Source: Escherichia coli
GTDB taxonomy: Bacteria > Pseudomonadota > Gammaproteobacteria > Enterobacterales > Enterobacteriaceae
NCBI GenBank assembly: GCA_022969815.1
Contig: GCA_022969815.1_4535.1
DNA: 64,000 bases
Strand: one strand, 5' to 3'
The translations under genes were made by a program, and so were the position numbers. The notes under the pieces were generated by a model. It made no database searches. It was not told the DNA's origin and was given only the letters and a program-made list of their open reading frames with translations. Shown here piece after piece: positions 1 through 19,799 of this stretch (the stretch's first letter is position 1; each line of letters begins with the position of its first letter).

Positions 1-297
1 TTGGTCACGATCGTAATAAGATTTGTAAGAATTGATTGTGTCTATATAAATGTTCTTGGCAATCTCTGCCAGGAAGATTCGGTCCACAATATCTTTCTTT
101 CGTGCTACACCGATAATCTCTTGCAGGTAAGGAACACCGAACGAGGTGTTAAGGAACCATTCTCCACGATATGTTTTGAGGGTGATCCCTAATGTCTGCG
201 CTGCAATCTCGGTACGAGTGGTTGTCAAAACAAGATCCCCATCATCCATGATGAGGTCGTTGTCTGATCCCAATTTTAAATCATATGGGATACCCAT
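1..297 (-). CDS. baseplate wedge protein, gpW/gp25-like (partial; C-terminus lies beyond window start)
   Basis: ATG at 297 preceded by AGGAG RBS; translation MGIPYDLKLGSDNDLIMDDGDLVLTTTRTEIAAQTLGITLKTYRGEW fits the gpW/gp25 family pattern; lies in a baseplate gene block. Confidence 0.45.
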   Translation of the reverse strand, partial: MGIPYDLKLGSDNDLIMDDGDLVLTTTRTEIAAQTLGITLKTYRGEWFLNTSFGVPYLQEIIGVARKKDIVDRIFLAEIAKNIYIDTINSYKSYYDRDQ

Positions 298-299
298 TA

Positions 300-1034
300 T
301 TATGCTCCTGAAGGTTTCAAGGATTCCGCACTTGAGCTTCCGCTCTGAATGTTGCGAACCGTATGGGTGTGGGTATGGAAGCCAATACCATTACCGTCTG
401 TCATCAATCCATTCTGATCAATCTGTAGTCCGTTAATGTTTGCAGACGTGCCTTTGAAAGTCATGACACCACCTGTCAAATCCAGGGTGCCGGAACCGTC
501 TGTCATTGTTATTCCAGAAGGAGTAATATCAATCTTCATTCCTTGGCTATTCCATATAGATATAGTGCCAGAAGGATCGAAAGATGCATACGTGTTTTTG
601 TTATTTGAAATAACTACCTTCTCGGAATCTACTGCTTCTGTTGAATCGGTGCCTGTGGAAATCTTAGGAATAAAGCAAATCGGATATAAACCGCAAGGCT
701 GCATCAATGTAGTCGTTGTGGCTGCTTCTCCAGAAGTTTGCATTGCATTCGAAGGATCTCGTTCAGAGAAAATAACAACACCAATATCACCGGATTTAAT
801 AGGGAAGGAGATACGCCCTGTACCTCCTCCGTTAACCATAAAAGGAACATCGTGGAAGGTTGGATAGTCGATAGAATCTTCTTCTGATCGCGTATTCTTC
901 ACAATGGATTCCAATGTCAGTGTTTTTGCACCGTAGTTAACACCTGTAACTCGCACTGGTAATGAGGTATGCACCTCTGCCAGTTGTTCTGTCATCATGC
1001 CACGCATTGCTGTGACAAAGTTCAAAGCATCCAT
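300..1034 (-). CDS. baseplate central spike protein (gpV-like), putative
   Basis: 244-aa ORF, AGGAAGG RBS, start overlaps stop of upstream gene; Gly/Thr/Ser-rich C-terminal half typical of spike proteins; position directly upstream of gp25-like gene. Confidence 0.35.
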   Translation of the reverse strand: MDALNFVTAMRGMMTEQLAEVHTSLPVRVTGVNYGAKTLTLESIVKNTRSEEDSIDYPTFHDVPFMVNGGGTGRISFPIKSGDIGVVIFSERDPSNAMQTSGEAATTTTLMQPCGLYPICFIPKISTGTDSTEAVDSEKVVISNNKNTYASFDPSGTISIWNSQGMKIDITPSGITMTDGSGTLDLTGGVMTFKGTSANINGLQIDQNGLMTDGNGIGFHTHTHTVRNIQSGSSSAESLKPSGA

Positions 1035-2047
1035 TATTTACCTTCCTTCGTCATAATTGCAGATACAGATACACACTCAACTTCTGTCACCCACTCGCTA
1101 CCTTCCTTGTCCCCGTGATGCGATACAGATACCACTTTAAATGGACCATCATAATCGCGGCTCTTGAGCCAAATGGTTTTTTCAGGTAAGATTGCACCAT
1201 TCATCTGGCATTTGAACTTCACACCGTCTGTAGGTTTCTTGGCTTTCTTAGAAGCTTTAGTCACCTTCTTGGCAGGTTTGATATCGTTGTGGAATGGTTC
1301 TGGGCTTCCTATCAACCCTGTTTCAGGACTGATGTAGGCGCTTCTTGCGTTGGACATTTGAGAACGAGGTGTAACATAAACAGACCCATCTTGAATGGAC
1401 ACGTTATGATCAATACTCTTACAAATGTGTTCCAGGTAGTGTGAAGTATTTCCACACATCGCTGTCGCAGAAGAAAGGGTCTGATCATTATCAATATGAA
1501 TGTTACCTTCTGTTGTCCCAAGATCCTTAACAAGATCTGCAACAACACGTTTTACTTTCGTTCCTTTAGGGTAGCTACGACTGGTACGGGCTTCAGAGAT
1601 GTTGATACCCCCGTCCAGACAATGGAGAACAGTTTTACGATCGACGCTATCAAACGTATCACTTACCCACTGAATTGTACCCTTGAAAATCATAACCAAT
1701 TCTTGCCCTTCGTATCCAACTGCTAAAGCTACTGCCAGGTTGTTACGAATGCCTCGGTTGATGTAGTTTACTGTGTCATCCGACAGGTTGTAAATAGTAA
1801 TCTCCGCCTGGTTAGGATCTTTGTTATTATCTTTCTTGATATTGAAAGTAATTTGATGATGTTCAAGTAGATACAAATTAGAAGAAGATTTTGTAGTGCT
1901 TCCCAATTTAGTATCCAAATCTACTGTTGATTTAAAGGATGAGTTGCTTGTCCTTTTCTGCACGGTATTCGTTGCCGTACCAATCAACAGTTTATATGCC
2001 CTGTTCAGATTGGGAACAGGGGCTTTTGTATATTCTCTTTCTGCCAT
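1034..2047 (-). CDS. baseplate hub-like protein (P2 gpD / Mu gp44-like), putative
   Basis: 337-aa ORF in tail/baseplate block between tape measure and spike; assignment by synteny only. Confidence 0.3.
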   Translation of the reverse strand: MAEREYTKAPVPNLNRAYKLLIGTATNTVQKRTSNSSFKSTVDLDTKLGSTTKSSSNLYLLEHHQITFNIKKDNNKDPNQAEITIYNLSDDTVNYINRGIRNNLAVALAVGYEGQELVMIFKGTIQWVSDTFDSVDRKTVLHCLDGGINISEARTSRSYPKGTKVKRVVADLVKDLGTTEGNIHIDNDQTLSSATAMCGNTSHYLEHICKSIDHNVSIQDGSVYVTPRSQMSNARSAYISPETGLIGSPEPFHNDIKPAKKVTKASKKAKKPTDGVKFKCQMNGAILPEKTIWLKSRDYDGPFKVVSVSHHGDKEGSEWVTEVECVSVSAIMTKEGK

Positions 2048-2065
2048 ACAATCTCCCCTTAACTA

Positions 2066-2479
2066 TTAAGCTTGGTTCGATAGATTATCTATGTAAACCA
2101 AAACAAAACGTTTTTCAATTCCTGTTGTTGTGTAACCAGGACGACCATTAATCTTCACCGTGTCAATCATATAAAGCTGTCCGTCTGGAACGCCTTCAAG
2201 ATATTTGTACGGTTTCAACAGATCGAGTCCGTTGGTTATCTTAAACGTTACACTTGGTTCATCTCCTGACAAACCTATAAGACACTGCCAGGCTTCATCA
2301 CGAGTATTCCAGCGTAAACGTATGTCATAATCCACACCATCCAATGTTACGGTGTAGGTTTGGTCTGGATACTCTTCAGTTTTTAAATACCAGGCGAAGT
2401 AATCAGAACGGTCTTCCAAGAAGACAGCCTTGTATCCAGAGTTTGTTGTGCTTCGTGTTGCTTTAGAGTAAGTTGCCAC
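2066..2479 (-). CDS. hypothetical tail-associated protein
   Basis: 137-aa ORF co-oriented and tightly packed in tail gene block. Confidence 0.4.
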   Translation of the reverse strand: MATYSKATRSTTNSGYKAVFLEDRSDYFAWYLKTEEYPDQTYTVTLDGVDYDIRLRWNTRDEAWQCLIGLSGDEPSVTFKITNGLDLLKPYKYLEGVPDGQLYMIDTVKINGRPGYTTTGIEKRFVLVYIDNLSNQA

Positions 2480-2481
2480 GA

Positions 2482-3189
2482 TTAACCTCCGTTATTCGAC
2501 GGTGTGTTGGTATCCCTTGCAGCATCCCTGTTGATCGGGTTGTCAACTTTAGCTCCGCCAGTTGGCGCTTTGCTCTTAACTTCACCACCAGTAGATTTGT
2601 TCGGAGCGGTCTTCACAGCTATCGCGTTAGTTGTTGCAGTGCTCACCAGACGAATCTGTTCCAGTTCCAGATTAAATTGCATAGCAAACTCTGAACGATA
2701 TTCGTAAGTGTAACCTTTCAGGATCACGTTCTCGAAAGTACGGTGTTCTGTCAATAGAACTATCGGTTGACGAGCATCAAAAATCTGATCCAAATACTCA
2801 ATTGCTTGAGAGATACGTGTTCCATTAACACCTGCACTGTAAAGCTGATCACGCATCAAACGTACAGGCGTTTCTGTAATAACACCTGTCAATTTAAAAG
2901 TGTTGTTGTTTATTTTGACGTTATCACTCACTGTACTACCTGATTCAACAGGGAAGCTTGTGATATCGGCTGAACGAGTTACTCCAACTTCCGGTGCGGA
3001 GTCGAAAGTAATCGCCATAAAGTTTTGTATGTATTGATCACTTGAGCTATTGTAAACACTGGCTAAGATACAAAAACCGTTATCACCTTTCACCGTGGAG
3101 GCGGAGTTATTCGTATTTTGTGTTGAGTTCACCTCTTGCTCGGATTTGTAGACGGCTCTTACCGACTGTTGTGGAGTCATTGCTGCCAT
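2482..3189 (-). CDS. hypothetical tail protein (first gene downstream of tape measure)
   Basis: ORF 2482..3216 begins with a TTG; ATG at 3189 (MAAMTPQQ...) preferred as start; synteny. Confidence 0.4.
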   Translation of the reverse strand: MAAMTPQQSVRAVYKSEQEVNSTQNTNNSASTVKGDNGFCILASVYNSSSDQYIQNFMAITFDSAPEVGVTRSADITSFPVESGSTVSDNVKINNNTFKLTGVITETPVRLMRDQLYSAGVNGTRISQAIEYLDQIFDARQPIVLLTEHRTFENVILKGYTYEYRSEFAMQFNLELEQIRLVSTATTNAIAVKTAPNKSTGGEVKSKAPTGGAKVDNPINRDAARDTNTPSNNGG

Positions 3190-3346
3190 GATAACCTCAT
3201 AGTAATGGTAATGCAAAGAGGAAGATGCAAGATCTTCCCATATTGATTATAATACCACAAATGTCGCCGTTATGTCAATGTAAAAATAATCCTTGACTAC
3301 CGTGATCCGCCTTGCTACACTGTATTTATTAACTAAGGAGGAAATT

Positions 3347-4360
3347 ATGGGCGTGATTAAAGGTTGGGACATTCAGAAGAAAGAATGTGAAGAAGTGGCA
3401 AGACCAGGTATTACTGTTCTTGGATTTGTTGAACCGTGGAATGGTGCACATACTAAACTGATGCTGAAATGTGAGAAGCATGGAGAATGGAATACAACCT
3501 CCATCAACAACTTCAAAAAGAATGGTTCTGGTTGTAATGGTTGTCGAGCAGATATATGTGGTGCGAGAGCAGAAGGGAATAGTTTTGCAAGTAAAAATGC
3601 TATCTCAGATGAGCAACACATTAAGGATTTCTTGGCTACCGGATTGTTTGCAGAGGGGACGACTTTCGTAAACACAGGGGTGAAAACAAAAGCTAAGAAC
3701 GATTGTTTCTGGAAAGTAACTTGTCCTGTTTGTGCGGTAGACGAATACTCCAAAGCAGGATTAGGAGATGGATCTTTTGAAGCCAGAACTTCGCATATGA
3801 AACGGGGTCAAATCCCTTGTCGTTGCTCTCCTCGGCATATCTACTCTAAAGATCAGTGGATGTTTAGATTTCAGTTAATGTGTGAAGAAAAAGGTTATAC
3901 TTTTGTCAAGGCCATTTATGAAGGGGAAGCATACTCTCACGGAGATGTTGAATACACCTGTCCAGAACACGGCTCGCAACGCATGACTGTGAAGAACCTC
4001 ATGTCAGGTAAAGGTTGTCCAGAGTGTGCCAATAAAACGCAACAGTTCTGTTATATTAATGAAGTGTACGATGAAGATAATAATCTCTGTGCTCTTAAAT
4101 TTGGAATTGCCAATGATGCTGAACGTAGGATCAAAGGTCAGAATTCGAAGAATGCTTTCATAATGAAACAGAAAGTTGTCTACTTCTTTGATGATATCAA
4201 GTCGTGCCGAGCAGCGGAGAGGGAGTGTTTGAAGCTGTTGGAGTGCGGTGTTGTGAATAAATTTCAGTTGAAGGATGGACACACAGAAACAACACACCTT
4301 TCAAACTACACCAAGATTGTCGATATCTTTGAAGAATTTGGAGGGATGTTACAGAAATGA
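3347..4360 (+). CDS. zinc-ribbon repeat protein with C-terminal T5orf172/GIY-YIG-like segment; possible free-standing homing-endonuclease-like gene
   Basis: AAGGAGG RBS before ATG at 3347; three repeats of C-x-x-H-G...G-x-G-C-x-x-C; C-terminal LCALKFGIANDAERRIKGQ resembles GIY-YIG-like core; only plus-strand gene inside the minus-strand virion module. Confidence 0.4.
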   Translation: MGVIKGWDIQKKECEEVARPGITVLGFVEPWNGAHTKLMLKCEKHGEWNTTSINNFKKNGSGCNGCRADICGARAEGNSFASKNAISDEQHIKDFLATGLFAEGTTFVNTGVKTKAKNDCFWKVTCPVCAVDEYSKAGLGDGSFEARTSHMKRGQIPCRCSPRHIYSKDQWMFRFQLMCEEKGYTFVKAIYEGEAYSHGDVEYTCPEHGSQRMTVKNLMSGKGCPECANKTQQFCYINEVYDEDNNLCALKFGIANDAERRIKGQNSKNAFIMKQKVVYFFDDIKSCRAAERECLKLLECGVVNKFQLKDGHTETTHLSNYTKIVDIFEEFGGMLQK

Positions 4361-4388
4361 AAAAAGGGGCCGAAGCCCCTTTCTTTTA
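4361..4388. terminator. bidirectional rho-independent terminator
   Basis: AGGGGCCGAAGCCCCT hairpin flanked by A-run upstream and T-run downstream, between convergent genes. Confidence 0.6.
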
Positions 4389-5174
4389 GTTGCTGTTTGA
4401 CTGTCCACTTAACGTCTGCAAAGTCAGGCTCTGCATGAACGATTCAGAAGAAGCTTTAGCATTGAAATCAATGTAATCGGAAAGACGAGAAACATCACTT
4501 TGTAATGTCAAGGCAACTTCCGGTGTCAACGTAATGTTGAAGGTCGGGTTTGTCTGGTACTGCATAGCTTTAGATTGGAAATTCTGTGCGTCTTGACGAA
4601 TAGATTCTCCGGTAAACGTATAATTGTTTGCCGCAGATCCTGATCCATCTTTCTCAAAATATCCCACAACCTTATCCCAAATAGAAACACCTTCATCATT
4701 TTTGGAAGTGAGTCCATCTGAAACCGCCGCAAAAGGGTTAAAGGTTCTGTTCGCCATATCCCACACACTGGCATCTTTTCCTGTAGCTGCATAAATGAAA
4801 CCGAAGTTCTCGCGCATGAAGCTATCCAACCCTGTAAAGATGTTCAGGAACATGGTTGCAGTTTTGGCTGTGTTGACAGTTAACTTACCCATCTCTTCAC
4901 CCAAATCTTTCGCTACCTTATCCAACATTTTTACGTTGTCCAACCAGGACTCGTCTTTAGGTATTGCGTTCATAAATCCTTCCAGGAAATAGTTCTGCAT
5001 ACCTTGCCCGACCAAGCCTACCGTGGCAGTCAAGCGTGTGTACTCTTTAGAAGCTTCCATTTGCTCATTGGTCAACGCAGCACCAGTACGTTGAAGCATA
5101 CGGAGGGTTTCTTGGAAGCCTTCTCCGTTCTTGCTAAACATACGTTGGTAATGCATGAGGTCGTCACCAAGGTT
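4386..5174 (-). CDS. tail tape measure protein, exon 2 (3' exon; 5' boundary modelled)
   Basis: Reading frame of ORF 4386..5156 stays open upstream to about 5182; helix-rich sequence continuous in character with exon 1; modelled exon start at 5174 (NLGDDLMHYQ...). Confidence 0.5.
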   Translation of the reverse strand, partial: NLGDDLMHYQRMFSKNGEGFQETLRMLQRTGAALTNEQMEASKEYTRLTATVGLVGQGMQNYFLEGFMNAIPKDESWLDNVKMLDKVAKDLGEEMGKLTVNTAKTATMFLNIFTGLDSFMRENFGFIYAATGKDASVWDMANRTFNPFAAVSDGLTSKNDEGVSIWDKVVGYFEKDGSGSAANNYTFTGESIRQDAQNFQSKAMQYQTNPTFNITLTPEVALTLQSDVSRLSDYIDFNAKASSESFMQSLTLQTLSGQSNSN

Positions 5175-5529
5175 CTCAAGGCTTTGATTTTAAAGGAGTT
5201 TTTGTTAGTAACTCCCCCAGTTCTAACTTCGAACTGCTGCAACTTTCATTGCAGGAAAGACTATATCTTCATCTACGTGAGATGCTTCGCACTTCGCCCC
5301 ACTTGGGGCTACTCTACTCGCTTCCGTATCACTACGTGCTTTCGATAGTCGTTGAACTTTACTCTCGGTGAGAGTCTTAGCTGCTGATTACCCATTGTAC
5401 CATCTTGACAATTTTCAAGCATTCACGCCTGGCGTTGCCGCCTACGTTGTAGCTTGTCAAGCTTTAGGGAGTTCCAGCAATTCACGAAGTTTTCATTACC
5501 TTATCGCTAAGGTACGGCCCCTGTTAAGA
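5175..5529 (-). mobile_element. group I intron (ORF-less, subgroup IA-like) interrupting tape measure gene; boundaries approximate (+/-15 nt)
   Basis: Minus-strand RNA carries the conserved core elements in canonical order: P AAUUGCUGGAA (plus 5472-5482), Q AAUCAGCAGC (5380-5389), R GUUCAACGACUAUCGA (5342-5357), S AAGAUAUAGUCU (5258-5269), then P9-like hairpins; no ORF in the 355 nt. Confidence 0.7.
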
Positions 5530-6690
5530 AAGGCGACCAATCTGTGCCGAGTTCATGCCACGACGCTCACCTTCATTCACAGTTGCCTGTATGAAAGCTA
5601 ATGGATCGTTCTGCATGTGTTTAATTTGTGAAGGGTTCCAACCGAACATGTTCATGATATCGTTGATACCGTTATCACCCCCACGCCATTTTCCTTTTTT
5701 CTCATCCCATTCAGCAGCCATCATCGAGTTACCCAAACGTTCACGAACGTCTTTAAGGTTATCGATTGACTTAATAATGTTTGCCGAGTCAACACCGTTC
5801 TGTTCACCCCAAGCAGTCATTGTCATAATGGCGTTAGCGTTTGCCTGAACGTTCTCTGCACCACGACCTATGAACTTGATACGATCGTTAGCAGTTTGTA
5901 ACGTATTACCTACAACAGAACCACCTGCAAACAGTCCTGCACCAATCATGGATGAAACCATCATGCGAGGATTAAGGCCCAAAGCGCCATCTCTCATTTG
6001 CGAGTATTGACGATCTTTATCTCGGCGTTGCTGTGCCAGTTCACGTTTATGGTTACGCTCAATATCACGTAGCTCTTTATCACGCATACGCTGACGTTGT
6101 TTGGCTTCTGCTTCCAATTCACGACGAACTCGACGACGACCACGTACTTCATCTTCGATATCTTTTACTTTCTCTCGGTGAGATCGACGAAGATTATCAA
6201 GCTGGTGGGCCAGTGTCTGGTTCATACGTTGAAGAGTGATATCTCCACGTTTGTACGATTCTACAGAAGCATCCATGATTTGTTTGGCTTGGCGTTGCGC
6301 ATCTAAGGAAGCTTTGGTATACTGCATACCACGCTTTTCAAAGTTCTCCATACGGAGATTGCCTAAATCATTACGACGAGCCTGTAGCTCGGCAGCGCGT
6401 TCTTCTGGAGTTTTCTTTCCTGGTTTAGCTGGACGACCAGGACCGGAGGTAGTTCCACCACCTTTTGGAGTAGGAGGGGGAGCAGGGCGAGCAGGGAAAG
6501 TCTGCGCTTTACGCATTTCTCTTTCGATCTCTTTCATCTGCTGCCTAAACTTACTCATGTTTAAGGTGGGCTGTATTCTTTCAGCGAACTTTTTAACACT
6601 CTCTACAGAATCTTTGGCTTCTTTGAGACTGTTCTTGTCCACCTTAAATGTGACTACGTTACTGATTTTAGCCGCGTTTATATCTAACAA
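5530..6690 (-). CDS. tail tape measure protein, exon 1 (5' exon; 3' boundary modelled)
   Basis: TTG start at 6690 with GAGGA RBS; charged coiled-coil-like sequence with Pro/Gly-rich linker; unspliced frame hits a stop at 5524-5526 just inside the intron. Confidence 0.5.
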
Positions 6691-6705
6691 AGTATTTTCC
6701 TCATG

Positions 6706-7044
6706 TTAGTGGATCATTTTCTTAAACATGTCTTGCATTTGAGTAGCGTTCTCTTGTTGCTTTCTCTTTATTGAAGTGTCTTTGGTGTACAGAGCTTCAA
6801 TATATTCCTCATAAGTGAGGTACTCGTACATCCCCAATAGATAATCCACCCCGTATTGATCCAGGGTGGAGCGTGTTTCCGAGGTATTCTTCACGACCTT
6901 GCAGAGAATGATCTCATACCACTTCAACGTAAGGGTCTTCTCTGCTGTTTCCATCGCATGACGAATGGCTGGGCTTAGTTCGTTGCCAGATCCTGAACTG
7001 CTTGGAACTGGGTCAACAGTTTTCCGAAACCTCGTTTGAAAAAA
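6706..7044 (-). CDS. tail assembly chaperone, -1 frameshift extension ORF (GT-like product when fused to upstream ORF)
   Basis: Frame of ORF 6706..6954 is the -1 frame of ORF 6975..7457 and stays open back to the slippery heptamer at 7038-7044. Confidence 0.45.
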   Translation of the reverse strand, partial: FFQTRFRKTVDPVPSSSGSGNELSPAIRHAMETAEKTLTLKWYEIILCKVVKNTSETRSTLDQYGVDYLLGMYEYLTYEEYIEALYTKDTSIKRKQQENATQMQDMFKKMIH

Positions 7045-7457
7045 GGGCCGTAGTTCACCTCAAGAACTTTTGCTGTCAAGTCGAGGACAAGTTCTGGGTG
7101 AGCAAAGAAGAGTTCGTCGAAGTTATCAGATACGTTGTGACCTGCTTCGGTATATACTTCATCTAAGATCTTACGGAGGAACACAGTAAGGTTCTTCTCT
7201 TCAAGACCAGAGAACAATTGAATAAGTGCCATTGCAATACGAGATTCCAGATCTTCTTCAGCCGACATAAGGGCAGTATTGTACATGGTCATAGGTACAG
7301 CTAAAACGCTACCGAGTTCTGGGATACGCTCGAAGACCTTTGAAGGACTCCATTTCAGAATACGGAAGGTTACAAAACGGGTTTCATCTAAGTAGATTTT
7401 TACGATTTCTTCTGGACGTGCATATTGTTTGATAGTATCATCTTGTTGTTCGGACAT
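6975..7457 (-). CDS. tail assembly chaperone (G-like), putative
   Basis: 160-aa acidic ORF between tail tube and tape measure genes; contains slippery site near its 3' end. Confidence 0.45.
   Translation of the reverse strand: MSEQQDDTIKQYARPEEIVKIYLDETRFVTFRILKWSPSKVFERIPELGSVLAVPMTMYNTALMSAEEDLESRIAMALIQLFSGLEEKNLTVFLRKILDEVYTEAGHNVSDNFDELFFAHPELVLDLTAKVLEVNYGPFFKRGFGKLLTQFQAVQDLATN
7038..7044 (-). promoter_or_regulatory. -1 programmed ribosomal frameshift slippery heptamer U_UUU_UUC
   Basis: Minus-strand sequence GGC CCU UUU UUC AAA in the 0 frame of the chaperone gene; -1 frame open for about 110 further codons. Confidence 0.45.
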
Positions 7458-7479
7458 AGTTTCCTCTCTTTTTAGTTAA

Positions 7480-7503
7480 ATAAAAAGGGCATTTCTGCCC
7501 TTT
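7480..7503 (-). terminator. rho-independent terminator after tail tube gene
   Basis: GGGCATTTCTGCCC hairpin followed on minus strand by T-run. Confidence 0.5.
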
Positions 7504-7508
7504 CGTTA

Positions 7509-7988
7509 TTATTGAATGGTCAGTGCGGAGATAGAGTTAAGAACACTCATACCTACACCAACTTCATTACGTAACAGGCTTGCATCTTTCAGACCGATAA
7601 CCCATTGGTTCTCTGTAATCATTTCGCCCATAGTGTCTTCAGGTTGAGATTGAATCCAACCAATGGTGCTAATGTAGTAACCACGAGGATCTTCCAGGTA
7701 AACACTGAATGCTACTTGACGAGTAGAATACATTGTTTGAGCATAAGTTGCCAAAACTTCGTTTGCCGGAGATGTACGTTGCAGAGAAATAGTCATGGTG
7801 CCGAGACGGTTGCGGCTAAGAGCCAGAGAAACATCGCCATCAGTACCAGCATATGGGTTAATAATATCGTTGGCTTTTGCAATTACAATTTTAGTGTCGG
7901 TTGCAAAACCCCACGGCTCCCATCCACCCAGGGACAGAACGATTTGGGAAGGATCATAGGCCATTACGCCAGTAAGCATTTTATCCAA
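7509..7988 (-). CDS. tail tube protein, putative
   Basis: 159-aa ORF immediately downstream of sheath-sized gene and followed by terminator; synteny. Confidence 0.45.
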   Translation of the reverse strand: MDKMLTGVMAYDPSQIVLSLGGWEPWGFATDTKIVIAKANDIINPYAGTDGDVSLALSRNRLGTMTISLQRTSPANEVLATYAQTMYSTRQVAFSVYLEDPRGYYISTIGWIQSQPEDTMGEMITENQWVIGLKDASLLRNEVGVGMSVLNSISALTIQ

Positions 7989-8034
7989 TTTGGATCTCCT
8001 TTAGGGATAAGGCGAGGTTGCCCCCGCCAAATTA

Positions 8035-9408
8035 TTAGTTTGCAGTACGGTTGGTCAGGACGTGAACCTGAACCTTAACGTAATGGAAGAATCCTGCGTA
8101 AACGTATTCAATCTTCATGCCGTCAACCAGACGCTGATTAATCTGCGAATCAGTCATGTCAGCACGAGAAGGAAGGTAAACGATAGGCTTCAGGTCAACA
8201 CGCAGTCCAGTTTCTTCTGAAACAACCACTTCGTTAGAAATAGAGCCATTCAGAATACCAACTTGGATCGGGTTAGCCAGAACCGCTTGTTTAATCAGAG
8301 CCAGACCATTGGAAGTAGCACGAACACCACCACCCAACATTGACTGCTGTTTGAACAGAGTGAACAGAGATTCTTCGGTACGAGCTTTGAACCACAGAGC
8401 GTGAACTACGTAGTCAGCAAAGAAACCGTTAACCATCAGACCATCGCGGTAGAACAGAGTTGCGTGTTCTTTACGGTAGATGTTACCATTCTGTTGAACA
8501 ATGTTATTTTCCGCAGTCTGACCGAGTTTCTCGATTTCAACTCCAACCAGAGTTTTACCATGCAGAGTCGTAGTACCAGGCTGTGCAGAGCAGATAGAAC
8601 CAACAACAGCAGCTTCTGGGAATACAGAGTCTGCGTCGCTCATCCACAGAGCAAAACAGGTATTGACATAGCCAAGGTCATTTAAACGCTCAAGAACGTT
8701 GTCTTCGGCTTTAGTAGTGATACCAACGTCTGAACTGGAGAAGAAGTATACTTTGTCATTCTCTTCTACCCAAGCAGCTACGTCAAGAATATCTTCAACA
8801 GCATGGGAGTCAGACAGAACCCAGAACCAGCTACTATCAATATCGTGCAGAGCGGAGATATCTTCGGTAATACCGTTAGCGTAGACGGTTTCTTTAGCGA
8901 AGCCGCTTGCATCCAGAGAAGCGTATTTGCCTACAACTGGAGAAACAGTGATCACAGCGCCATCGTTAGCAACGGTAAACAGACCACCGTAAACTACGTC
9001 TGCATTGATCATTTCTGTCAGACCAACAACGATTTCTTGTGCTGTTGCAGTGTCGTCAGCAATGAATTTGAAATCTTTCTTGTTCTTGCCTTCTTTGATA
9101 GTGATAACATATGTTGCACTATCTTCAACTGCTGGGGTCAGGGTAAAGTTTGTTACTTCACGCTTACCAACAATCACTTGACTTGGTGCGAATAATCCGT
9201 TAAACAGTTTAACTGCCATGATATAGGCTGGATCATTAACACCGTAACCCGCTTCCAGAAGTGCGTCAGAAGAGGTGTAATATTCAATCGCGTTACCAGT
9301 GACAGTCTGACCAGTAAGGATCAGGGGAATGTCAAACTGGGTTTCACGGATTGATGTAGCTCCGTACAGTAAAGTTACGGTTGCTACCTTTTCACGAAAA
9401 GTTGCCAT
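8035..9408 (-). CDS. tail sheath protein, putative
   Basis: 457-aa ORF upstream of tube gene; size and position typical of contractile-tail sheath. Confidence 0.5.
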   Translation of the reverse strand: MATFREKVATVTLLYGATSIRETQFDIPLILTGQTVTGNAIEYYTSSDALLEAGYGVNDPAYIMAVKLFNGLFAPSQVIVGKREVTNFTLTPAVEDSATYVITIKEGKNKKDFKFIADDTATAQEIVVGLTEMINADVVYGGLFTVANDGAVITVSPVVGKYASLDASGFAKETVYANGITEDISALHDIDSSWFWVLSDSHAVEDILDVAAWVEENDKVYFFSSSDVGITTKAEDNVLERLNDLGYVNTCFALWMSDADSVFPEAAVVGSICSAQPGTTTLHGKTLVGVEIEKLGQTAENNIVQQNGNIYRKEHATLFYRDGLMVNGFFADYVVHALWFKARTEESLFTLFKQQSMLGGGVRATSNGLALIKQAVLANPIQVGILNGSISNEVVVSEETGLRVDLKPIVYLPSRADMTDSQINQRLVDGMKIEYVYAGFFHYVKVQVHVLTNRTAN

Positions 9409-9441
9409 TTATGCTCCTGTTAGAAACTTATTCCAATGAAT

Positions 9442-10080
9442 TTATTCGTTGGGGTTGTTAAATAATGATCCATCATCAGTTACTGGTGAGTATTCGCCAT
9501 TAACCTCATGAACTACGTAAATTCTATCCAGAGTTAAATCCAGAGGTGTGGGATCATTGTAGCTATCTCTGAATGATCGAATATGCATGTTGACAGCCTC
9601 TATAGGGGTTGTCATAATATCCTCAATACTCATACGAGTGTTGAAGGTCATAATCATACGCGCTCTAACTTCAGTCTTATCTCCATCCAGAACTGTGTTT
9701 GCCTGTGTGATATTTGTTGCTGACAGGAAACCCATCCCTTTGGAATAGAGATGCTTGTATTTTAATTCCTCTGCACCACGTAGAGCAGCCAGAACATAGC
9801 TCAACAGAGTAGTGGGTCTTCCACGGAAAGCCATGAGTTCAATCTCATAGGTATTGTCCATCTCGTAGGAAAACATATCCTGCTCTATTTTGCCTCGGTA
9901 AGACCACCCGCCAGAATCACTGGAGGTGATAATACGTAGTGCCAGGTATGGATTGGTTGGTTGGACGAACGGTTTGTCCATCACGTAAATTGGCAATCCA
10001 GTTAATTCTTGAAGGAAACTACCTATGTTAAGATAGATAGCATTCTCATACGCTTCGATTTGTTCGTAGATATTAGCCAA
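9442..10080 (-). CDS. hypothetical virion protein (head-tail region)
   Basis: 212-aa ORF in co-directional late block. Confidence 0.45.
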   Translation of the reverse strand: MANIYEQIEAYENAIYLNIGSFLQELTGLPIYVMDKPFVQPTNPYLALRIITSSDSGGWSYRGKIEQDMFSYEMDNTYEIELMAFRGRPTTLLSYVLAALRGAEELKYKHLYSKGMGFLSATNITQANTVLDGDKTEVRARMIMTFNTRMSIEDIMTTPIEAVNMHIRSFRDSYNDPTPLDLTLDRIYVVHEVNGEYSPVTDDGSLFNNPNE

Positions 10081-10522
10081 AGTTTCCTCCCTCTTGATCG
10101 TAATCCCACGTATTGTTTTGATCGTCTAATATGGCGACACAATGATGATGGGTTAGGAAAGTAGTTCGAGTCCAATCTTTAAGGGAGTACACAGAATACC
10201 ACTGACCATCAATCAAGATTTGGTCGGATAGTTGAGAGGTTCCTTGTTGGATGCCTCGCATTTCTGTTTTAGTCCAGAAACTATATTGCGCCTTTGATCT
10301 GTACCCTTCGGGCAGTGCTTTTAGAGTTTTTCCAGAGATTGGTTGCAGACTTGCAGCCGCTATCTCAAACTCTTCATATTCTACGGTACTACCCATATTG
10401 GCGATAACAGAACCTACAGCTTCTTTGTAGACACGTCTACGCCCTTGATATGAGGTAAGATCAAGGAGAGTGAATTGATCAAGTAACACCTGTATCTCCT
10501 TTTTAGTATACATCAAAAACAA
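10073..10522 (-). CDS. hypothetical virion protein
   Basis: 149-aa ORF, overlapping stop/start with neighbour. Confidence 0.45.
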   Translation of the reverse strand: MFLMYTKKEIQVLLDQFTLLDLTSYQGRRRVYKEAVGSVIANMGSTVEYEEFEIAAASLQPISGKTLKALPEGYRSKAQYSFWTKTEMRGIQQGTSQLSDQILIDGQWYSVYSLKDWTRTTFLTHHHCVAILDDQNNTWDYDQEGGNFG

Positions 10523-10534
10523 AATTTATGCAAG

Positions 10535-11023
10535 TTATTTTTTAGACTTGCCTTTTGTGATCTTCGAGTCTATCTCGTTAATCATGTGCCCTGTGTCAAT
10601 CAAAGTATGCGTAGAGTAATTCCCTTTATCACGACGAATCTTAATTGTCACCGGAGAAAGTGCTCTATATCGTTGGGAAGCTATTGCTCTTGCTATTCCT
10701 TCACGAGAAGCTTTCGCTATCGGCTCAAAAACTCCGAGTCCTTTATTTCGCATAAGGTATTGAACAAAAACATTCGGTAATAGCTTGGCTATCTCTTTAC
10801 TGGAAATCACAGCACCGTCAGTCATAAACGGACGGGCTGGAATATTATTTGTTTCGTTACCATATTGCTGGATAGCAGCTATCGCTGGAATAGTGAGATC
10901 TGATTCAGGGTGTCTCTTGTTTTCAAGGAAACCAGCTTCAATTTCCACATTCTCTAATACCATCATCTTTTTAATGATTGTATCCCAGTCTGTGTCTGTA
11001 CCTGGTAAGATCTCACTTTTCAT
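10535..11023 (-). CDS. hypothetical virion morphogenesis protein
   Basis: 162-aa ORF in late block. Confidence 0.45.
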   Translation of the reverse strand: MKSEILPGTDTDWDTIIKKMMVLENVEIEAGFLENKRHPESDLTIPAIAAIQQYGNETNNIPARPFMTDGAVISSKEIAKLLPNVFVQYLMRNKGLGVFEPIAKASREGIARAIASQRYRALSPVTIKIRRDKGNYSTHTLIDTGHMINEIDSKITKGKSKK

Positions 11024-11571
11024 TATTTGTCCCTACGATAATATGATACAGGTCCGTAGTTTCGCAGATAGTTTACGTTACGTGTTTTACGATCTACACT
11101 GGCAACATTACCTAAACCATTCACAGAGTTAGGATCGCTGTTGACACGATCGATTTCACGAGCATCTACACCGCCAATCAGAACACGACTTGTTGCACCA
11201 CGTCCAGCGGTACACCCTGGAATAACCATTAAGCCGTTCAGGTAGTTGTTGTAGATATCTTCCCAAGGAGATTTGTATTCTACTTGACCGTTACTAAATT
11301 TAACTTCTACTTCCACTTCGCCCATCTTTTCACGGCGGGACATTGCACCACCACTTTGACTGTTGTTATTTAAAACATCAGTGTTCCACAGGTATTCAAG
11401 AACAGAAATTAAACTGTTCCATAGAACAGCACACTTATTAGAGTCGGCGTTACCAATAATATCGATCCATGTCTGGATAATCTGAATCAACACTGCGTCT
11501 GGCAAAGTTTCTTGAGACGGATTATAAACAAGGATTCGAACCATTGGTGCCAATTCAGTAGCAATCAGCAT
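11023..11571 (-). CDS. hypothetical virion protein
   Basis: 182-aa ORF in late block. Confidence 0.45.
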   Translation of the reverse strand: MLIATELAPMVRILVYNPSQETLPDAVLIQIIQTWIDIIGNADSNKCAVLWNSLISVLEYLWNTDVLNNNSQSGGAMSRREKMGEVEVEVKFSNGQVEYKSPWEDIYNNYLNGLMVIPGCTAGRGATSRVLIGGVDAREIDRVNSDPNSVNGLGNVASVDRKTRNVNYLRNYGPVSYYRRDK

Positions 11572-11580
11572 AACTTCTCC

Positions 11581-11925
11581 TTACTTTTTACGGAGTGATC
11601 GTTTCTTGGCTGGTGAATCTACTGCTTCAACTTTCAGAACTTCCTGTTCGACTTCGATCTCTTTGTAATCTTCGAAGCTGACAAGGAAATAGCCCATGTG
11701 CTCTTCGCTACTAAACGGATGAACCAACAGACCAGTTTCTTCACGCAGACGTTGTAAGAAATGAATAAAATTACCACCTAAAGCAACACGACCATCTTTC
11801 AGATAGAAAGACATTGGAGGCGCTTGAGTGAGAGTCTTCTCTGCATCCAGATTGCTCACGAGCTTAGAGAAGTCCTGAATCATTTCGTGGTAGCTGAAGT
11901 AACGTTTTAATTGTGGGTTTGACAT
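11581..11925 (-). CDS. hypothetical head-associated protein
   Basis: 114-aa ORF immediately downstream of capsid terminator. Confidence 0.45.
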   Translation of the reverse strand: MSNPQLKRYFSYHEMIQDFSKLVSNLDAEKTLTQAPPMSFYLKDGRVALGGNFIHFLQRLREETGLLVHPFSSEEHMGYFLVSFEDYKEIEVEQEVLKVEAVDSPAKKRSLRKK

Positions 11926-11957
11926 AACAATCTCCTCGGTATATAGTGTTCATATAA

Positions 11958-11990
11958 CAAAAAAGGCTCGCCCATCACGGACGAGCCTCT
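11958..11990 (-). terminator. rho-independent terminator after major capsid gene
   Basis: AGGCTCGCCCATCACGGACGAGCCT hairpin followed on minus strand by TTTTT. Confidence 0.55.
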
Positions 11991-12007
11991 TTTAGAACAG
12001 AGTTCTA

Positions 12008-13006
12008 TTAAGCAGTGGTCAGACGAACAATCAGTTCTGGGCGAACGTTAACTGCCAGAAGAGAGAATTCAGACTGAAGACTTACAGTACGGTGCTCACT
12101 GATCATGAACGTGTACAGTTCACGAGCAACAGTGTTAGCCAGTTCTGGAGTATCCGCAGGAGCGTAGTGCGCCTGGAACATATCCGCGATACCCATAGGC
12201 AGAACATATGCTTCACCAGCAGGGATGTTACCGTGAATATCTTCGATGTAGGTTACGCCGTTCCATTCGAACACCTGAACGTCCATGTTACCGTTCAGAC
12301 GGTCACGCAGGAGGTTAGGAGTGCCCTGGAAGTACTGGTAAGCCTGACGAACGAACGGAGAGTTAACCAGAGAAGCGAAGAACTCACGAGAGCACAGAGC
12401 AACGATACGAGTAGCGGTAGAACCGTCTTGTTTTTCGTCGATGATGTATGCACGAGCTTCTTGCTCAACGGTAGCCGCTGGAGAAACAGTGGTAGAAGCG
12501 AAATCTACAGGAACTGATTTCTGGGTAGCGCCCCACTCGGTGTACCAGTTGTACGCAGAGTTAGCAGCGCCGCCGCCAGTGTATGCACGACCCATTACTG
12601 CTTCAGCAAAGATCTTCTCTTTGGTTTTTGCAGCATCGCGCAGAATCTGCGTCATATAACGGTTAACTACTTCTGCTTCAGTACGCAGAGAGTCGTTGAT
12701 ACCAGCCATAGCGAAGCTACGGAAAGACTGGATATCTTGAGCTTTGATGTTCTTATCCAGTGGGAAGAATGGGATACGGAACACTTTGACTTCTGGAGTA
12801 TCCATAGTCAGGAAGTTACGCTCACCACCACGTTCACGGGCAGGAATCAGACCATCTTGAGTTTTTTGTTTGCCGATTTCAACAACGGTAGTTGCATGGT
12901 ACTGTACATCAAACAGACCCAGGCTGGCAATCAGTGTATCAGGAGTATCCTGAAGTTCGATCATTGGGCTGAAATCAACAACCTGATCTAAAATTACTGC
13001 TGGCAT
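12008..13006 (-). CDS. major capsid protein, putative
   Basis: 332-aa ORF followed by a strong terminator, downstream of portal/scaffold-like genes; Ala/Gly/Thr-rich composition. Confidence 0.55.
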   Translation of the reverse strand: MPAVILDQVVDFSPMIELQDTPDTLIASLGLFDVQYHATTVVEIGKQKTQDGLIPARERGGERNFLTMDTPEVKVFRIPFFPLDKNIKAQDIQSFRSFAMAGINDSLRTEAEVVNRYMTQILRDAAKTKEKIFAEAVMGRAYTGGGAANSAYNWYTEWGATQKSVPVDFASTTVSPAATVEQEARAYIIDEKQDGSTATRIVALCSREFFASLVNSPFVRQAYQYFQGTPNLLRDRLNGNMDVQVFEWNGVTYIEDIHGNIPAGEAYVLPMGIADMFQAHYAPADTPELANTVARELYTFMISEHRTVSLQSEFSLLAVNVRPELIVRLTTA

Positions 13007-13028
13007 TATATTAATCTCCTATCAAAAA

Positions 13029-13421
13029 TTAAGAAGTGAAAACGACTTTTTCAGTCAGTTTCAGATCACGAGTTTCCAGTGCTGCTACGCCAGCGTCGTC
13101 AATCAGATTACCGTTGCTATAGAATACAGCAAAGCGGTTCAGAGTCAGGTCGCGTACACCAACAACGGCGGTGAAAGTGTCACCAACTGCAACATCATCG
13201 ATACCGAACAGAGCATCAGTCCACAGCAGAACTTTAGCAGCATCAGCGGCAGCGGCAGCTTCGGTGTTGTCAGCTTTCAGTACGGAACCAATTTTCATGG
13301 TTGCGGTTTTAACCAGGTTTACTTCGCGTACACAGTGTCCGAGGTCAGAGCTAAAAACTCCACCCAGAACCAGGTGTCCGAATTCCTGGCGAGAGTTAGA
13401 TAAAGTAATTCCTTTAGCCAT
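13029..13421 (-). CDS. hypothetical head protein (decoration or assembly)
   Basis: 130-aa ORF between scaffold-like and capsid genes. Confidence 0.4.
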   Translation of the reverse strand: MAKGITLSNSRQEFGHLVLGGVFSSDLGHCVREVNLVKTATMKIGSVLKADNTEAAAAADAAKVLLWTDALFGIDDVAVGDTFTAVVGVRDLTLNRFAVFYSNGNLIDDAGVAALETRDLKLTEKVVFTS

Positions 13422-13440
13422 TTAATTTAATCTCCTAAGA

Positions 13441-14559
13441 TTATTGTTTCTGGGCTTTTTTGAGTTCGGCAGCTTTCTGACGAATCAGTTCAGATGCAGA
13501 TTTGGCAACAACTTCCACATTGGCAACATCAGCGCCTTGTTCTTTACCAAACTCTTTCTTAACTGCTTCAACTTCTGCACGGGCTTTTTCGAATGCGTTA
13601 ACAACAGTTTCAGCGATCTCTTTATTATCGATCAGGTATTTAACCAGTGCTTCAACTTTTTCTTCTTCTACGAAAGCGTAAGACTTAACAACAGTGGTGT
13701 ACTCTTCTTCGATACGAGCCAGTTCAGCTTTACGAAGTTCTTCTGCTGCGAGTTCTGCTTTAGCGATCTTTTCCTGTGCTGCCAGTTCTGCTTGTTCACG
13801 GGCTTCTGTCGCTGCTTTTTCTACAGCTTCAGCAATCTGTGCTTTCATCAGGTCTTGGAATTCGGCAGATTTCAGGAATTCTTCTTTGTTAATATTTTCC
13901 AAAGGTAATTCTCCTTTATTGATTCCAGTTGTGTTTGCAGATTTGTCACCTGCGGGGTTAGCCTCTGCATCCACAGAGTTCTTATTGGTTTGAGCATTAT
14001 GTGCTTTCACCAGATAATCTTTAACTTGATCGTGTTTCAGAGCACCTTTAATAAGATCGCCAAGAGCATCTTCGATCAGGTCTTCAAAGAAATCGACGGA
14101 AACCATAACGTCACCATCAACAACTTGATAATCGGTAGTACGTACAACAGGTTTAGCAACTTCTTCGAGTTCAACAACTAAACCGTTCAAAGTAAAGTTT
14201 ACGGCAAACATACCGTGATCAGAACAGAAGATTGCAACGTTAGCATCAAAGTCTACATCTGCCAGCCAAACCCAGTCCCAACATGTGGAGAACTTTTCGT
14301 TTACAGCGTTGGCGATGCGGTCCATTACTTGCTGAATGTAACCTTTACGTAATTCAGTAACGTCTTCACCCATTTTAGCCAGAGCTTCGATTTTCTCGAA
14401 GGTCACTTCAGGAGAGCCGTCAGATTTAAAAAGCAGTGGGGTATTGTAACCAGACGCTGCACCACCTTGAAAATCGAAAGTGTATGCGATATGTGCGCCC
14501 AGAGTTTCTTCCGTAGCTTTACCCGAAAAGTCTACGTTAGTAAGATATGTATTTGCCAC
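13441..14559 (-). CDS. scaffolding-like protein, putative
   Basis: 372-aa ORF with long C-terminal Ala/Glu/Lys-rich coiled-coil-like region. Confidence 0.4.
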   Translation of the reverse strand: MANTYLTNVDFSGKATEETLGAHIAYTFDFQGGAASGYNTPLLFKSDGSPEVTFEKIEALAKMGEDVTELRKGYIQQVMDRIANAVNEKFSTCWDWVWLADVDFDANVAIFCSDHGMFAVNFTLNGLVVELEEVAKPVVRTTDYQVVDGDVMVSVDFFEDLIEDALGDLIKGALKHDQVKDYLVKAHNAQTNKNSVDAEANPAGDKSANTTGINKGELPLENINKEEFLKSAEFQDLMKAQIAEAVEKAATEAREQAELAAQEKIAKAELAAEELRKAELARIEEEYTTVVKSYAFVEEEKVEALVKYLIDNKEIAETVVNAFEKARAEVEAVKKEFGKEQGADVANVEVVAKSASELIRQKAAELKKAQKQ

Positions 14560-14561
14560 AA

Positions 14562-15041
14562 TTAGTCCTTCTTGACTTTCACGCCCATCGCACCTATACT
14601 CAAACCTTTAAGAACGCCGTCCTTACGAGCTTGATATAGTTCAGGGTCGTTGAATTGGATTTTAACGAGGGGAGTTCCTTCCACAACGAGTTCGTCACCA
14701 ATGTAACAATCAACTTCGTTCACCCAAGCTTTAACTGGGGCAAATTTGTCTGTGTTCTTCATGTGACCAAGATTACCACTTACGTTAGTAATATTCTCAT
14801 TGAAGTTGTCTACCATCTTCCTGATTTCCATATCAGACATACGCTCACCGTGGAGGTCGTCTTTTTCAGGTGGACAATACAATACCTCAATAACCTGCAT
14901 TTGCTCTTCGTCAAACTTATTATGTTTGATTACTGTTTGAGGTTGTTGAGGGGGTGTAGAATCTTGTTGGGATGGGGTTGATTCTTTCATACCGCTGAAC
15001 GATTTGAAGAGTTCCCAGAGTGTATCTTTATTAAGTTCCAT
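14562..15041 (-). CDS. hypothetical head morphogenesis protein
   Basis: 159-aa ORF between portal and scaffold-like genes. Confidence 0.4.
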   Translation of the reverse strand: MELNKDTLWELFKSFSGMKESTPSQQDSTPPQQPQTVIKHNKFDEEQMQVIEVLYCPPEKDDLHGERMSDMEIRKMVDNFNENITNVSGNLGHMKNTDKFAPVKAWVNEVDCYIGDELVVEGTPLVKIQFNDPELYQARKDGVLKGLSIGAMGVKVKKD

Positions 15042-15132
15042 ATGAACCTCTTAAAAACAAATATCCCATAAATCTTAGTCTACAGGATATTCGTCATTTT
15101 GTCAATACCTAAAATCAAAAAAGTTTAATTTT

Positions 15133-16698: not shown

Positions 16699-16801
16699 TT
16701 TCTTCCTCCGGCACTGTGCTTAAAGATCAATAGGGCAAGGGTTAAATAAATTAACCCGCCCATAAAGTCATTGTACACTTTAAAGTAACTTTTGTCAACA
16801 A

Positions 16802-18880: not shown

Positions 18881-18889
18881 TTCTCCTCC

Positions 18890-19231
18890 TTACTTACTGA
18901 TAATCCCTTTCTCTTGCAGAGCCTTAATGTAGTTTTGTAAACCGATCACTTTGTTTCGGTCTTGACTCCAGAGAACATTATTTGTGGTCCCGTTATCAAC
19001 TACTTCAGAACGAGAAACACCTTTAGCAATTTGTTGATCTGTGTACGGTACAGGTTCACTTACACCTTCCATTAAAGAAGAGTCTGGTCCTCTGACTTCC
19101 TGCACTGCTACAGCTTTACATTCGTCAATTAGAATCGGGGAGGCTTTTGTTGAGGATGTGCAACCCGTCATCATTAGGGCCGAAGCAAGACATAGACCCA
19201 GTAGTAGTTTTTGCATAATTTGTTTTCTCAT
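18890..19231 (-). CDS. o-spanin (outer-membrane lipoprotein, Rz1-like), putative
   Basis: Signal peptide ending in lipobox-like ALMMTGC; gene overlaps 3' end of i-spanin gene in another frame. Confidence 0.45.
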   Translation of the reverse strand: MRKQIMQKLLLGLCLASALMMTGCTSSTKASPILIDECKAVAVQEVRGPDSSLMEGVSEPVPYTDQQIAKGVSRSEVVDNGTTNNVLWSQDRNKVIGLQNYIKALQEKGIISK

Positions 19232-19532: not shown

Positions 19533-19799
19533 CTTTAAATCTCACTTTAGGTAAGGATGGAGAGTTATTCACTACCTTCTTCACTTCCATCGGTTTGGCT
19601 TCCGCAAGAATCTCTTCCCACGTCTTCTCGATCATCATCTAATTCGTCCTCAAGATCCCATTGACGGGAGTAATCATTTTTCCTGTCACGATGGACAGAA
19701 GCTTTGTTAAAATCATTCTTAACTACAAAGTTGCGCATATTTTATCCTCCTCAATATTGATCTTATCACAAAACATATACACAATGCAAGCCCTAAAAA

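Follow-up and report, generated by a model that had tools for sequence, protein, structure and literature searches.

The interrupted tape measure gene

The window, a stretch of 64,000 nucleotides (nt) from Escherichia coli assembly GCA_022969815.1, carries on its minus strand two consecutive open reading frames (ORFs), 5524..6690 with 388 amino acids (aa) and 4386..5156 with 256 aa. Both sets of coordinates in a preliminary description of this DNA were confirmed, and its proposal that the two ORFs are halves of one tape measure gene was borne out by their match to a single PHROG family, phrog_16051 'tail length tape measure protein' (profile of 660 positions), at positions 1-398 for the first ORF (E 1e-189) and 407-658 for the second (E 2e-49). 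The segment between them, 5182..5530 (-), is very probably a group I intron of 349 nt that has no ORF and an IA-like periphery; the phage whose tape measure gene it interrupts is a phiWec188-like ('Wecvirus', Stephanstirmvirinae) E. coli myovirus. The interrupted gene is composed of the following parts.

5531..6690 (-): tape measure exon 1, 1160 nt, with the match to profile positions 1-398; collinear with the phiWec188 coding sequence (CDS) at 3111..5066 of locus L001
5182..5530 (-): group I intron, 349 nt, from U5530 to the terminal G5182; recognised by its match to Rfam family RF00028 and as an exact insertion relative to three intron-less alleles
4386..5181 (-): tape measure exon 2, 796 nt including the stop TAA at 4388..4386, with the match to profile positions 407-658

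Exon 1 starts with TTG at 6690, with GAGG 8 nt upstream, and its 3' end (...GGUCGCCU) falls within a Leu codon (phase 2). Genes for a tail sheath, a tube-like virion protein and a tail assembly chaperone lie upstream of the tape measure gene and one for a Dit-like protein downstream, which is the expected location of a myovirus tape measure gene. The window shared 98.4% identity over 24 kb with Escherichia phages phiWec188 and phiWec190, which have been placed in the proposed genus 'Wecvirus' of the Stephanstirmvirinae (PMC12695924). The window's own genome was absent from the phage collection searched (50,697 records).

The group I identity of the element rests on the family match, the exact insertion-deletion difference from uninterrupted alleles, the restoration of the frame and a structure conserved across variant copies. 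A covariance-model search, which the preliminary description had named as a check, was run with a positive outcome: RF00028 (group I intron) matched 5540..5237 (-) with 84.6 bits (E 4.4e-20), against a gathering score of 50 bits, and the match spanned the full-length model (positions 1-253 of 253). This was the sole intron hit in the 64-kb window, and the two intron-less loci used as negative controls (L001 and L003) gave 0 hits. Lookup of the exon products in public assemblies, together with one metagenome scan, yielded seven further copies of the intron, as listed below with the handles of their loci.

L137 and L139: intron of 349 nt, identical to that of the window
L144: intron of 349 nt, with one substitution
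L138, L146 and L147: intron of 352 nt, a variant about 98% identical over intron nt 11-347
L145: intron of 348 nt, 85% identical, in a tape measure allele that is only about 70% identical

These other copies matched RF00028 with 81-85 bits. All copies occupy the same codon in the same phase, are preceded by ...CGCCU and end in G, and removal of the intron from each, including the 352-nt and 348-nt variants, restores the frame: the tape measure gene is then open, encodes 651 or 662 aa and has the same peptide across the junction.

The exact extent of the intron was obtained from natural alleles that lack it. Phages phiWec188, PsgM04F and phiWec179 each have one uninterrupted 1956-nt tape measure gene at the same position, and their alignment to the window showed exactly 349 extra nt in the latter. 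Two placements of the intron, 1 nt apart, are permitted by the alignment, of which a single one fits the rules of group I splicing: exon 1 ends with U5531, the intron ends with G5182 and exon 2 begins with C5181. The Rfam alignment independently sets the conserved splice-site U.G at U5531. The terminal guanosine (omega-G) is G5182, and the variant copies end with ...CAAGAG and ...CAAAGG. Removal of the 349 nt leaves a 1956-nt message encoding 651 aa, of which 650 are identical to the phiWec188 protein; it restores the gene, since the natural intron-less alleles match the spliced product. The junction lies after the second base of a Leu codon (...CGC CU/C CUU GAG..., protein ...SAQIGRL/LENLGDD..., the slash marking the junction), and SAQIGRLLENLGDD is read across the site in all 11 spliced or uninterrupted alleles compared.

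These splice sites differ from those proposed earlier, in which exon 1 ran to 5530 and an intron of 355 nt (5529..5175) was removed to give a 649-aa protein with the junction ...GRL/NLGDD.... That model does keep the frame (1950 nt, no stop), its intron ends in G, and U5530 does face a G of the guide in the window copy and could wobble-pair with it, so that the choice of U5530 was reasonable from one sequence. However, it deletes a Leu-Glu present in all eleven alleles, and it needs 355 nt where the insertion relative to intron-less alleles amounts to 349. Moreover, the U5530 pair is U-A rather than U.G in L138 and L145, while the pair of U5531, where Rfam puts the conserved U.G, is the only one kept as U.G in the variant copies. 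The 5' splice site was hence misplaced by 1 nt and the 3' splice site, G5175 instead of G5182, by 7 nt; the corrected product has 651 aa with the junction ...AQIGRL/LENLGDD..., and the probability left to the 649-aa model is close to nil. The two models predict distinct products. With U5531 and G5182, the predicted cDNA junction is CGCCUCCUUGAGAAC, i.e. ...AUUGGUCGCCU/CCUUGAGAACC..., and the junction-spanning tryptic peptide of the 651-aa model is LLENLGDDLMHYQR; with the earlier sites they are CGCCUUAACCUUGG, i.e. ...GGUCGCCUU/AACCUUGG..., and LNLGDDLMHYQR.

Predicted fold and conservation of the intron

The preliminary description had recognised the four core elements in the canonical order P-Q-R-S on the minus strand, which both the sequence and the Rfam alignment confirmed. 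An unconstrained minimum free energy (MFE) fold recovered P1, P2, P3, P4, P5, P6, P8 and P9-P9.2. The predicted anatomy, with the source of each assignment, is as follows.

5517..5534 (-): P1, GCCU/UU (5534..5529) with the internal guide AGGGGC (5522..5517) and the splice-site pair U5531.G5520; Rfam and MFE fold
5524..5526 (-): in-frame UAA stop, two codons into the intron and within the P1 loop; read from the sequence
P2 (-): hairpin with a GCGA loop; MFE fold
5472..5489 (-): P3 5' strand (CUUCGUG, 5489..5483), J3/4, and the P element with the P4 5' strand (AAUUGCUGGAA, 5482..5472); Rfam and fold
5479..5474 with 5387..5382 (-): P4 helix; MFE fold
5404..5461 (-): P5 arm, a short P5 and an extended arm of nested helices, with a GGCG-GCAA-CGCC hairpin closed by a GNRA loop; MFE fold
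5356..5389 (-): Q element with the P4 3' strand (AAUCAGCAGC, 5389..5380), and P6 and P6a within 5381..5356; Rfam
5342..5357 (-): R element with the P7 5' strand (GUUCAACGACUAUCGA), including ACGACUA (5352..5346) with a bulged C; Rfam
5296..5345 (-): P7.1 and P7.2 hairpins between P7 and the P3 3' strand, a 51-nt insertion in the Rfam alignment; fold
5258..5291 (-): P3 3' strand (UGCGAAG, 5291..5285), P8 (5284..5270), and the S element, which includes the P7 3' strand (AAGAUAUAGUCU, 5269..5258); Rfam and fold
5193..5254 (-): P9 (5254..5237), P9.1 (5236..5218) and P9.2 (5217..5193) hairpins; fold, the Rfam model ending after P9 at 5237

By this fold, three hairpins (P9, P9.1 and P9.2) follow S in place of the two P9-like ones described before. 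P7 is predicted to form between ACGACUA and UAGUCU (5263..5258), with 6 pairs and a bulged C invariant in all copies, in a pseudoknot with P3; this helix would provide the guanosine-binding G-C pair. The subgroup appears IA-like, an assignment at the level of IA (not of IA1, IA2 or IA3) that is judged from the predicted P7.1 and P7.2 (criteria in PMC3984707). Group I introns in protein-coding genes commonly have such an in-frame stop downstream of the 5' splice site (PMC3984707); the 352-nt variant (L138, L146 and L147) has its stop 13 codons in (a UGA after P2), compared with two in the window, and the gene-caller product of its first part is 399 aa compared with 388 aa. As for coding content, no ORF with nuclease-like content was found in the 349 nt, which are overlapped by short mechanical ORFs alone, such as the 56-aa ORF 5072..5242 (-) and plus-strand ORFs. 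The earlier statement that the intron carries no homing endonuclease is in line with this, as no endonuclease-size ORF fits in the gap.

The proposed pairs were compared across the four distinct intron copies. Of 102 pairs, 98.5% were paired, compared with 35-43% when partners were slid. Both sides had changed in three pairs, compared with 0.7±0.8 in shuffles (7 of 500 shuffles reached three), and all three double changes are compensatory and occur in L145: C-G to U-A in P2, C-G to U-A in P9 and U-A to C-G in P9.1. A fourth in the same copy, C-G to A-U at the closing pair of P6a, was seen in the alignment and left uncounted owing to a gap. The L138 copy differs from the window by single-sided changes only, of which four out of five preserve the pair. 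The splice-site pair is U.G in all four distinct copies, and at the pair next to it U.G alternates with U-A. Neither P3 nor P4 changes in any copy, and both are 100% paired throughout. In the P5-arm hairpin, both L138 and L145 have U.G for C-G and a GUAA loop for GCAA; in L145 the P8 stem is kept with an altered loop, and the pairing of P7.1 and P7.2 is kept through single-sided changes. The covariation lends thin support to the predicted peripheral helices.

Taken together, the element displays every sequence-level feature expected of a group I intron. In the late transcript it would fold into the P1-P9.2 architecture, in which exogenous guanosine would attack after U5531, held in P1 by the U.G wobble with the internal guide; the freed 3' end of exon 1 would then attack after the terminal G5182, and the exons would be joined to encode one 651-aa tape measure protein. 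A ribosome on an unspliced copy would stop at the UAA two codons into the intron, and one on an unspliced 352-nt variant would read through the P1 3' strand and P2.

Some observations weaken this picture. Splicing itself is inferred, from the fact that the phage needs its tape measure protein and yet the interrupted allele is maintained in eight or more independent samples or records. The covariation is thin, coming from four distinct sequences with an invariant catalytic core and a structure derived from one tested sequence. The main structural evidence is the Rfam score. Candidates for P10 are short and differ between copies (CUUAA of the P1 loop with exon-2 nt 3-7 in the window, AAU with exon-2 nt 1-3 in L138), and a pairing with exon 2 is not convincing. 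Alternatively, the gene might work in pieces, the 388-aa product and the 256-aa product (from ATG 5156) assembling with each other around an intron-like RNA that is inert or a remnant. In favour of this, neither ORF is damaged, ATG 5156 has a GGUGA motif 7 nt ahead of it, and a split phage ribonucleotide reductase works as two peptides (cited in PMC10448857). Nevertheless, the GGUGA-ATG stretch is ordinary coding sequence in uninterrupted alleles, the insertion falls within a codon, and eight conserved residues (LENLGDDL) as well as the split Leu codon would be lost without splicing. Since the RNA also retains all its core elements, the U.G pair, the terminal G and its peripheral helices in intact form, kept by compensatory changes, a gene in pieces is considered highly improbable, and a self-splicing group I intron is the preferred reading.

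Distribution, possible mobility and the neighbouring endonuclease gene

No copy of the intron sequence was found in the 50,697 phage records searched, where the best matches, at about 70%, were to the conserved core of other introns, including those of Escherichia phage W70, Bacillus phages AR9/PBS1 and Vibrio phage ICP1. A tblastn search with the spliced protein retrieved a homolog from 134 phage records; among the matches listed (60 of 134), it was contiguous throughout and spanned 1.9-2.0 kb, or less where only about three quarters of the protein were matched. An exact 36-nt intron word had no match in IMG/VR, where shorter words retrieved 13 and more than 120 contigs with distant phage introns (up to 77% identity over 150-190 nt), which were left out of the covariation analysis because their periphery was too divergent to align reliably. 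The element has so far been encountered only in a narrow lineage and in unannotated assemblies.

Two further loci contain other group I intron matches. In Escherichia phage W70 (OP778610.1; L140), a full-length Rfam group I hit of 70.4 bits at 2358..2623 is flanked by a 'hypothetical protein' CDS on one side and a short 'DNA primase/helicase' CDS on the other. A gene for an HNH homing endonuclease follows just downstream, and the hit is apparently an unannotated intron in a Vequintavirinae coliphage. In addition, a viral contig of IMG/VR (L101, 4155..5511) contains three tandem Rfam group I hits of 68-85 bits within 1.4 kb, which marks a gene densely packed with introns.

The presence or absence of the intron varies among phages about 98% identical. 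Because such near-identical phages differ in its presence, and because the codon it occupies is the same even between alleles of only about 70% identity, its distribution suggests that the intron is, or recently was, mobile at the DNA level; it encodes no nuclease, and homing would thus need one supplied in trans. The intron of L137 is 100% identical to that of the window while the exons differ at 70 of 1956 sites (3.6%), and outside the intron the identity between the two loci stops 43 nt upstream and 15 nt downstream of it. In L145, the last 14 exon nt (CAGATTGGTCGCCT) are common to all intron-bearing alleles, whereas the nearest uninterrupted relative has CAAATAGGGCGACT, a flank pattern as expected from co-conversion. 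The exon end is CGCCU in all carriers and CGUCU, CGUUU, CGCUU or CGACU in intron-less alleles; the synonymous CGU-to-CGC change in carriers strengthens P1. The shared exon flank partly overlaps bases that P1 requires, which tells against taking it as a trace of mobility.

Old vertical inheritance with occasional precise loss is a serious alternative, although it was judged improbable on balance. The intron would then be an old resident of the clade that no longer moves, lost from intron-less relatives by precise deletion, for instance when these recombined with intron-less phages or with a copy of the spliced RNA. The intron has no nuclease, lineages with a backbone identity of about 80% share the occupied site, and the 85% identity between the window and L145 introns lies within the range of the backbone (65-85%), a value that fits old inheritance with precise loss equally well. 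Such a history is contradicted by the identical intron in alleles that differ at 3.6% of exon sites, by the variable occupancy among phages about 98% identical, by an exon flank of L145 that is nearer to other carriers than to its own allele class, and by the lack of any copy among the phage records with a homologous gene.

If the intron moves, a candidate for the nuclease is encoded next to the tape measure gene, about 0.8 kb downstream of the intron, by a gene that converges on the tape measure gene.

3347..4360 (+): free-standing CapR zinc-finger / T5orf172-like endonuclease gene, 337 aa from ATG 3347 (mechanical ORF start 3293)
4360..4385 (-): terminator-like hairpin, GGGGC-UUCG-GCCCC followed by a U run, directly 3' of the tape measure stop

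The hairpin (4385..4360) has the form of a terminator on both strands and would thus also close the convergent endonuclease gene. The encoded protein matched Pfam CapR in three stretches (97.5 bits), Pfam T5orf172 with 17.4 bits (below the cutoff of 20) and phrog_681 'endonuclease' (E 2e-55). Relative to phiWec188, the gene lies on a 1052-nt insertion. It was found in the same position and orientation in all five intron-bearing loci that are long enough (window, L138, L145, L146 and L147), and the intron-less loci of phiWec188/190, PsgM04F and L150-152 (662-aa alleles) are without it. Phages phiWec179, phiWec181 and phiWec186 carry an endonuclease gene 90% identical in amino acids along with an intact intron site that is identical to phiWec188 from -29 to +14.

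A working trans-homing pair can be envisaged from this arrangement, in which the ORF-less intron would be moved by the adjacent endonuclease, either through a cut at the insertion site or through a nearby cut with co-conversion. Such collaboration would account for the presence of the endonuclease gene in every informative intron-bearing locus and its lack in the uninterrupted ones just named, and both the intron and the gene are clean insertions relative to phiWec188. The arrangement also matches those of ICP1 terL with a T5orf172 HEG (homing endonuclease gene), T3/T7-like phages and a cyanophage (PMC10448857), two systems in PMC3984707 and T4 mobE/I-TevIII (PMC2790892). However, phiWec179, phiWec181 and phiWec186 hold the gene with an intact site and would cut themselves if that site were the target. 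The association counted by independent lineages (3/0/1/3) was not significant, and the T5orf172 match stays below the Pfam cutoff. Between the window and L145 the endonuclease gene is 69% and the intron 85% identical, and between the window and L146 the values are 85% and 97%; endonuclease divergence does not follow intron divergence. A joint history of the two elements finds no support in their identity profiles.

Collaborative or trans homing was rated a shade below vertical inheritance, and a functional link between intron and endonuclease as rather improbable. If they are linked, co-conversion hitch-hiking, as in T4 mobE/I-TevIII (PMC2790892), would fit better than cleavage at the insertion site. 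The specific version in which the endonuclease cuts endonuclease-free rivals near the tape measure 3' end, and repair drags the intron in, is likewise rated as rather improbable; if true, it would be the first such pair for the CapR/T5orf172 nuclease family in a virion structural gene.

The tape measure gene is mosaic in its C-terminal third (CDS positions about 1400-1950, window about 4390..4940): phiWec179 and PsgM04F are 31-56% identical to the window in this part and 80-99% upstream, compared with 95-100% throughout for phiWec188. Recombination has its boundary about 250 nt downstream of the intron site, next to the point at which the endonuclease gene is inserted. Four independent assemblies (L137, L139, L148 and L149) end within about 30 nt past the tape measure stop, which is where the endonuclease gene is inserted or absent, and these contig breaks may reflect mixed populations with and without the gene in those samples.

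A comparison of window positions 1..34000 with phiWec188 (L143) showed four insertions as the only sizeable differences, at least three of which are selfish-element-like: the CapR endonuclease gene, the intron and an HNH ORF. The last of these, a 113-aa ORF at 21822..22163 (-) with an HNH motif (DIHHLD...NCVLLCKNCH), sits between tRNA-Ile and tRNA-Pro in a 412-nt insertion (21809..22220) that is absent from phiWec188, and is probably a second free-standing homing endonuclease within a tRNA cluster. The cluster comprises 11 tRNA genes at 21569..24473 (-) (Met, Ile, Pro, Gln, Gly, Thr, Tyr, Ser x2, Arg, Met), the same set being annotated in phiWec188. The remaining insertion, of 895 nt at 20208..21102 (71 nt in phiWec188), bears a 298-aa ORF at 20229..21125 (-).

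Relation to known phage introns

The preliminary description had called introns in virion structural genes much rarer than those in genes of nucleotide metabolism, which is overstated, as tape measure genes have been described as 'frequently interrupted' (PMC10448857; see also PMC2504315). The tape measure gene of Vibrio phage ICP1 has three introns, whose splicing was demonstrated by RNA sequencing (RNA-seq) and reverse transcription PCR (RT-PCR) and two of which normally lack a homing endonuclease gene (HEG) (PMC10448857). Group I introns occur at three tape measure sites in Bacillus cereus-group prophages, polymorphic among strains (PMC2504315), and in capsid and tail genes of Cluster J mycobacteriophages, with splicing shown in late expression (PMC3706429).

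The ICP1 system (Barth, Dunham & Seed 2023, PMC10448857) resembles that of the window in that a large virulent myovirus with a Gram-negative host bears introns in its tape measure gene, and T5orf172 HEGs adjoin intron-bearing essential genes in ICP1. Its tape measure locus is among the best blastn matches to the window intron, with a core identity of about 70% over 180 nt, but this similarity is confined to the conserved core, and three introns with an intronic HNH HEG in ICP1 contrast with one intron and a free-standing CapR-type gene downstream in the window. A homologous insertion site in ICP1 was rejected, since tblastn found no similarity between the tape measure proteins. The B. cereus-group introns (Tourasse & Kolsto 2008, PMC2504315) also lie at defined tape measure positions, but in temperate Gram-positive prophages with tape measure proteins of >1200 aa and an unrelated protein family and sites. 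Cluster J mycobacteriophages (Pope et al. 2013, PMC3706429) share the presence of group I introns in virion structural genes, those in tail genes being small; in contrast, they are actinobacterial siphoviruses, whose introns lie in minor tail genes instead of the tape measure gene.

The T4 introns in td, nrdB and nrdD belong to the same RF00028 ribozyme family and have the P7.1/P7.2 periphery that is predicted for the window intron, the in-frame stop, the U.G pair and the terminal G, and they too reside in conserved protein-coding genes of a virulent coliphage. They differ in that the window intron has no ORF, whereas td and nrdD carry I-TevI and I-TevII and nrdB a defunct I-TevIII, and in that the host gene in the window encodes a virion structural protein and not an enzyme of nucleotide metabolism. 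An ORF-less or nuclease-defective intron in an essential gene, with a free-standing HEG directly next to it, is common to the collaborative homing systems of the T3/T7-like DNA polymerase intron, S-PM2 psbA/F-CphI, T4 mobE/I-TevIII and ICP1 terL. The putative pair in the window departs from these in the distance of 0.8 kb between nuclease gene and intron, past the end of the host gene, and in the phiWec179-type phages, which hold the endonuclease gene with an unchanged uninterrupted site and misfit a model with the insertion site as target.

No report linking phiWec-type or Phapecoctavirus phages with introns was found in the literature covered, which did not include all journals, and the paper describing 'Wecvirus' mentions neither introns nor homing endonucleases (PMC12695924). 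Elements of this kind, host genes of this kind and such gene arrangements have been described before in phages, and current understanding is unchanged; the novelty lies in the lineage, in the intron sequence itself and in a naturally occurring genotype set that lends itself to homing experiments. For annotation, gene callers split the tape measure gene in every carrying assembly into 'hypothetical proteins' of 388 or 399 aa and of 256 to 287 aa, and the correct product in the window is a single 651-aa protein joined at 5531/5181. The finding adds a coliphage lineage, the 'Wecvirus' group of the Stephanstirmvirinae, to the phages with tail-gene introns. Three of the four natural genotype combinations exist, namely intron with HEG, HEG alone and neither. 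The isolated phages phiWec188/190 and phiWec179/181/186 represent the intron-less genotypes without and with the endonuclease gene, respectively, at 96-98% genome identity, and an isolate of the window type would complete an E. coli system for studying the spread of a nuclease-less intron.

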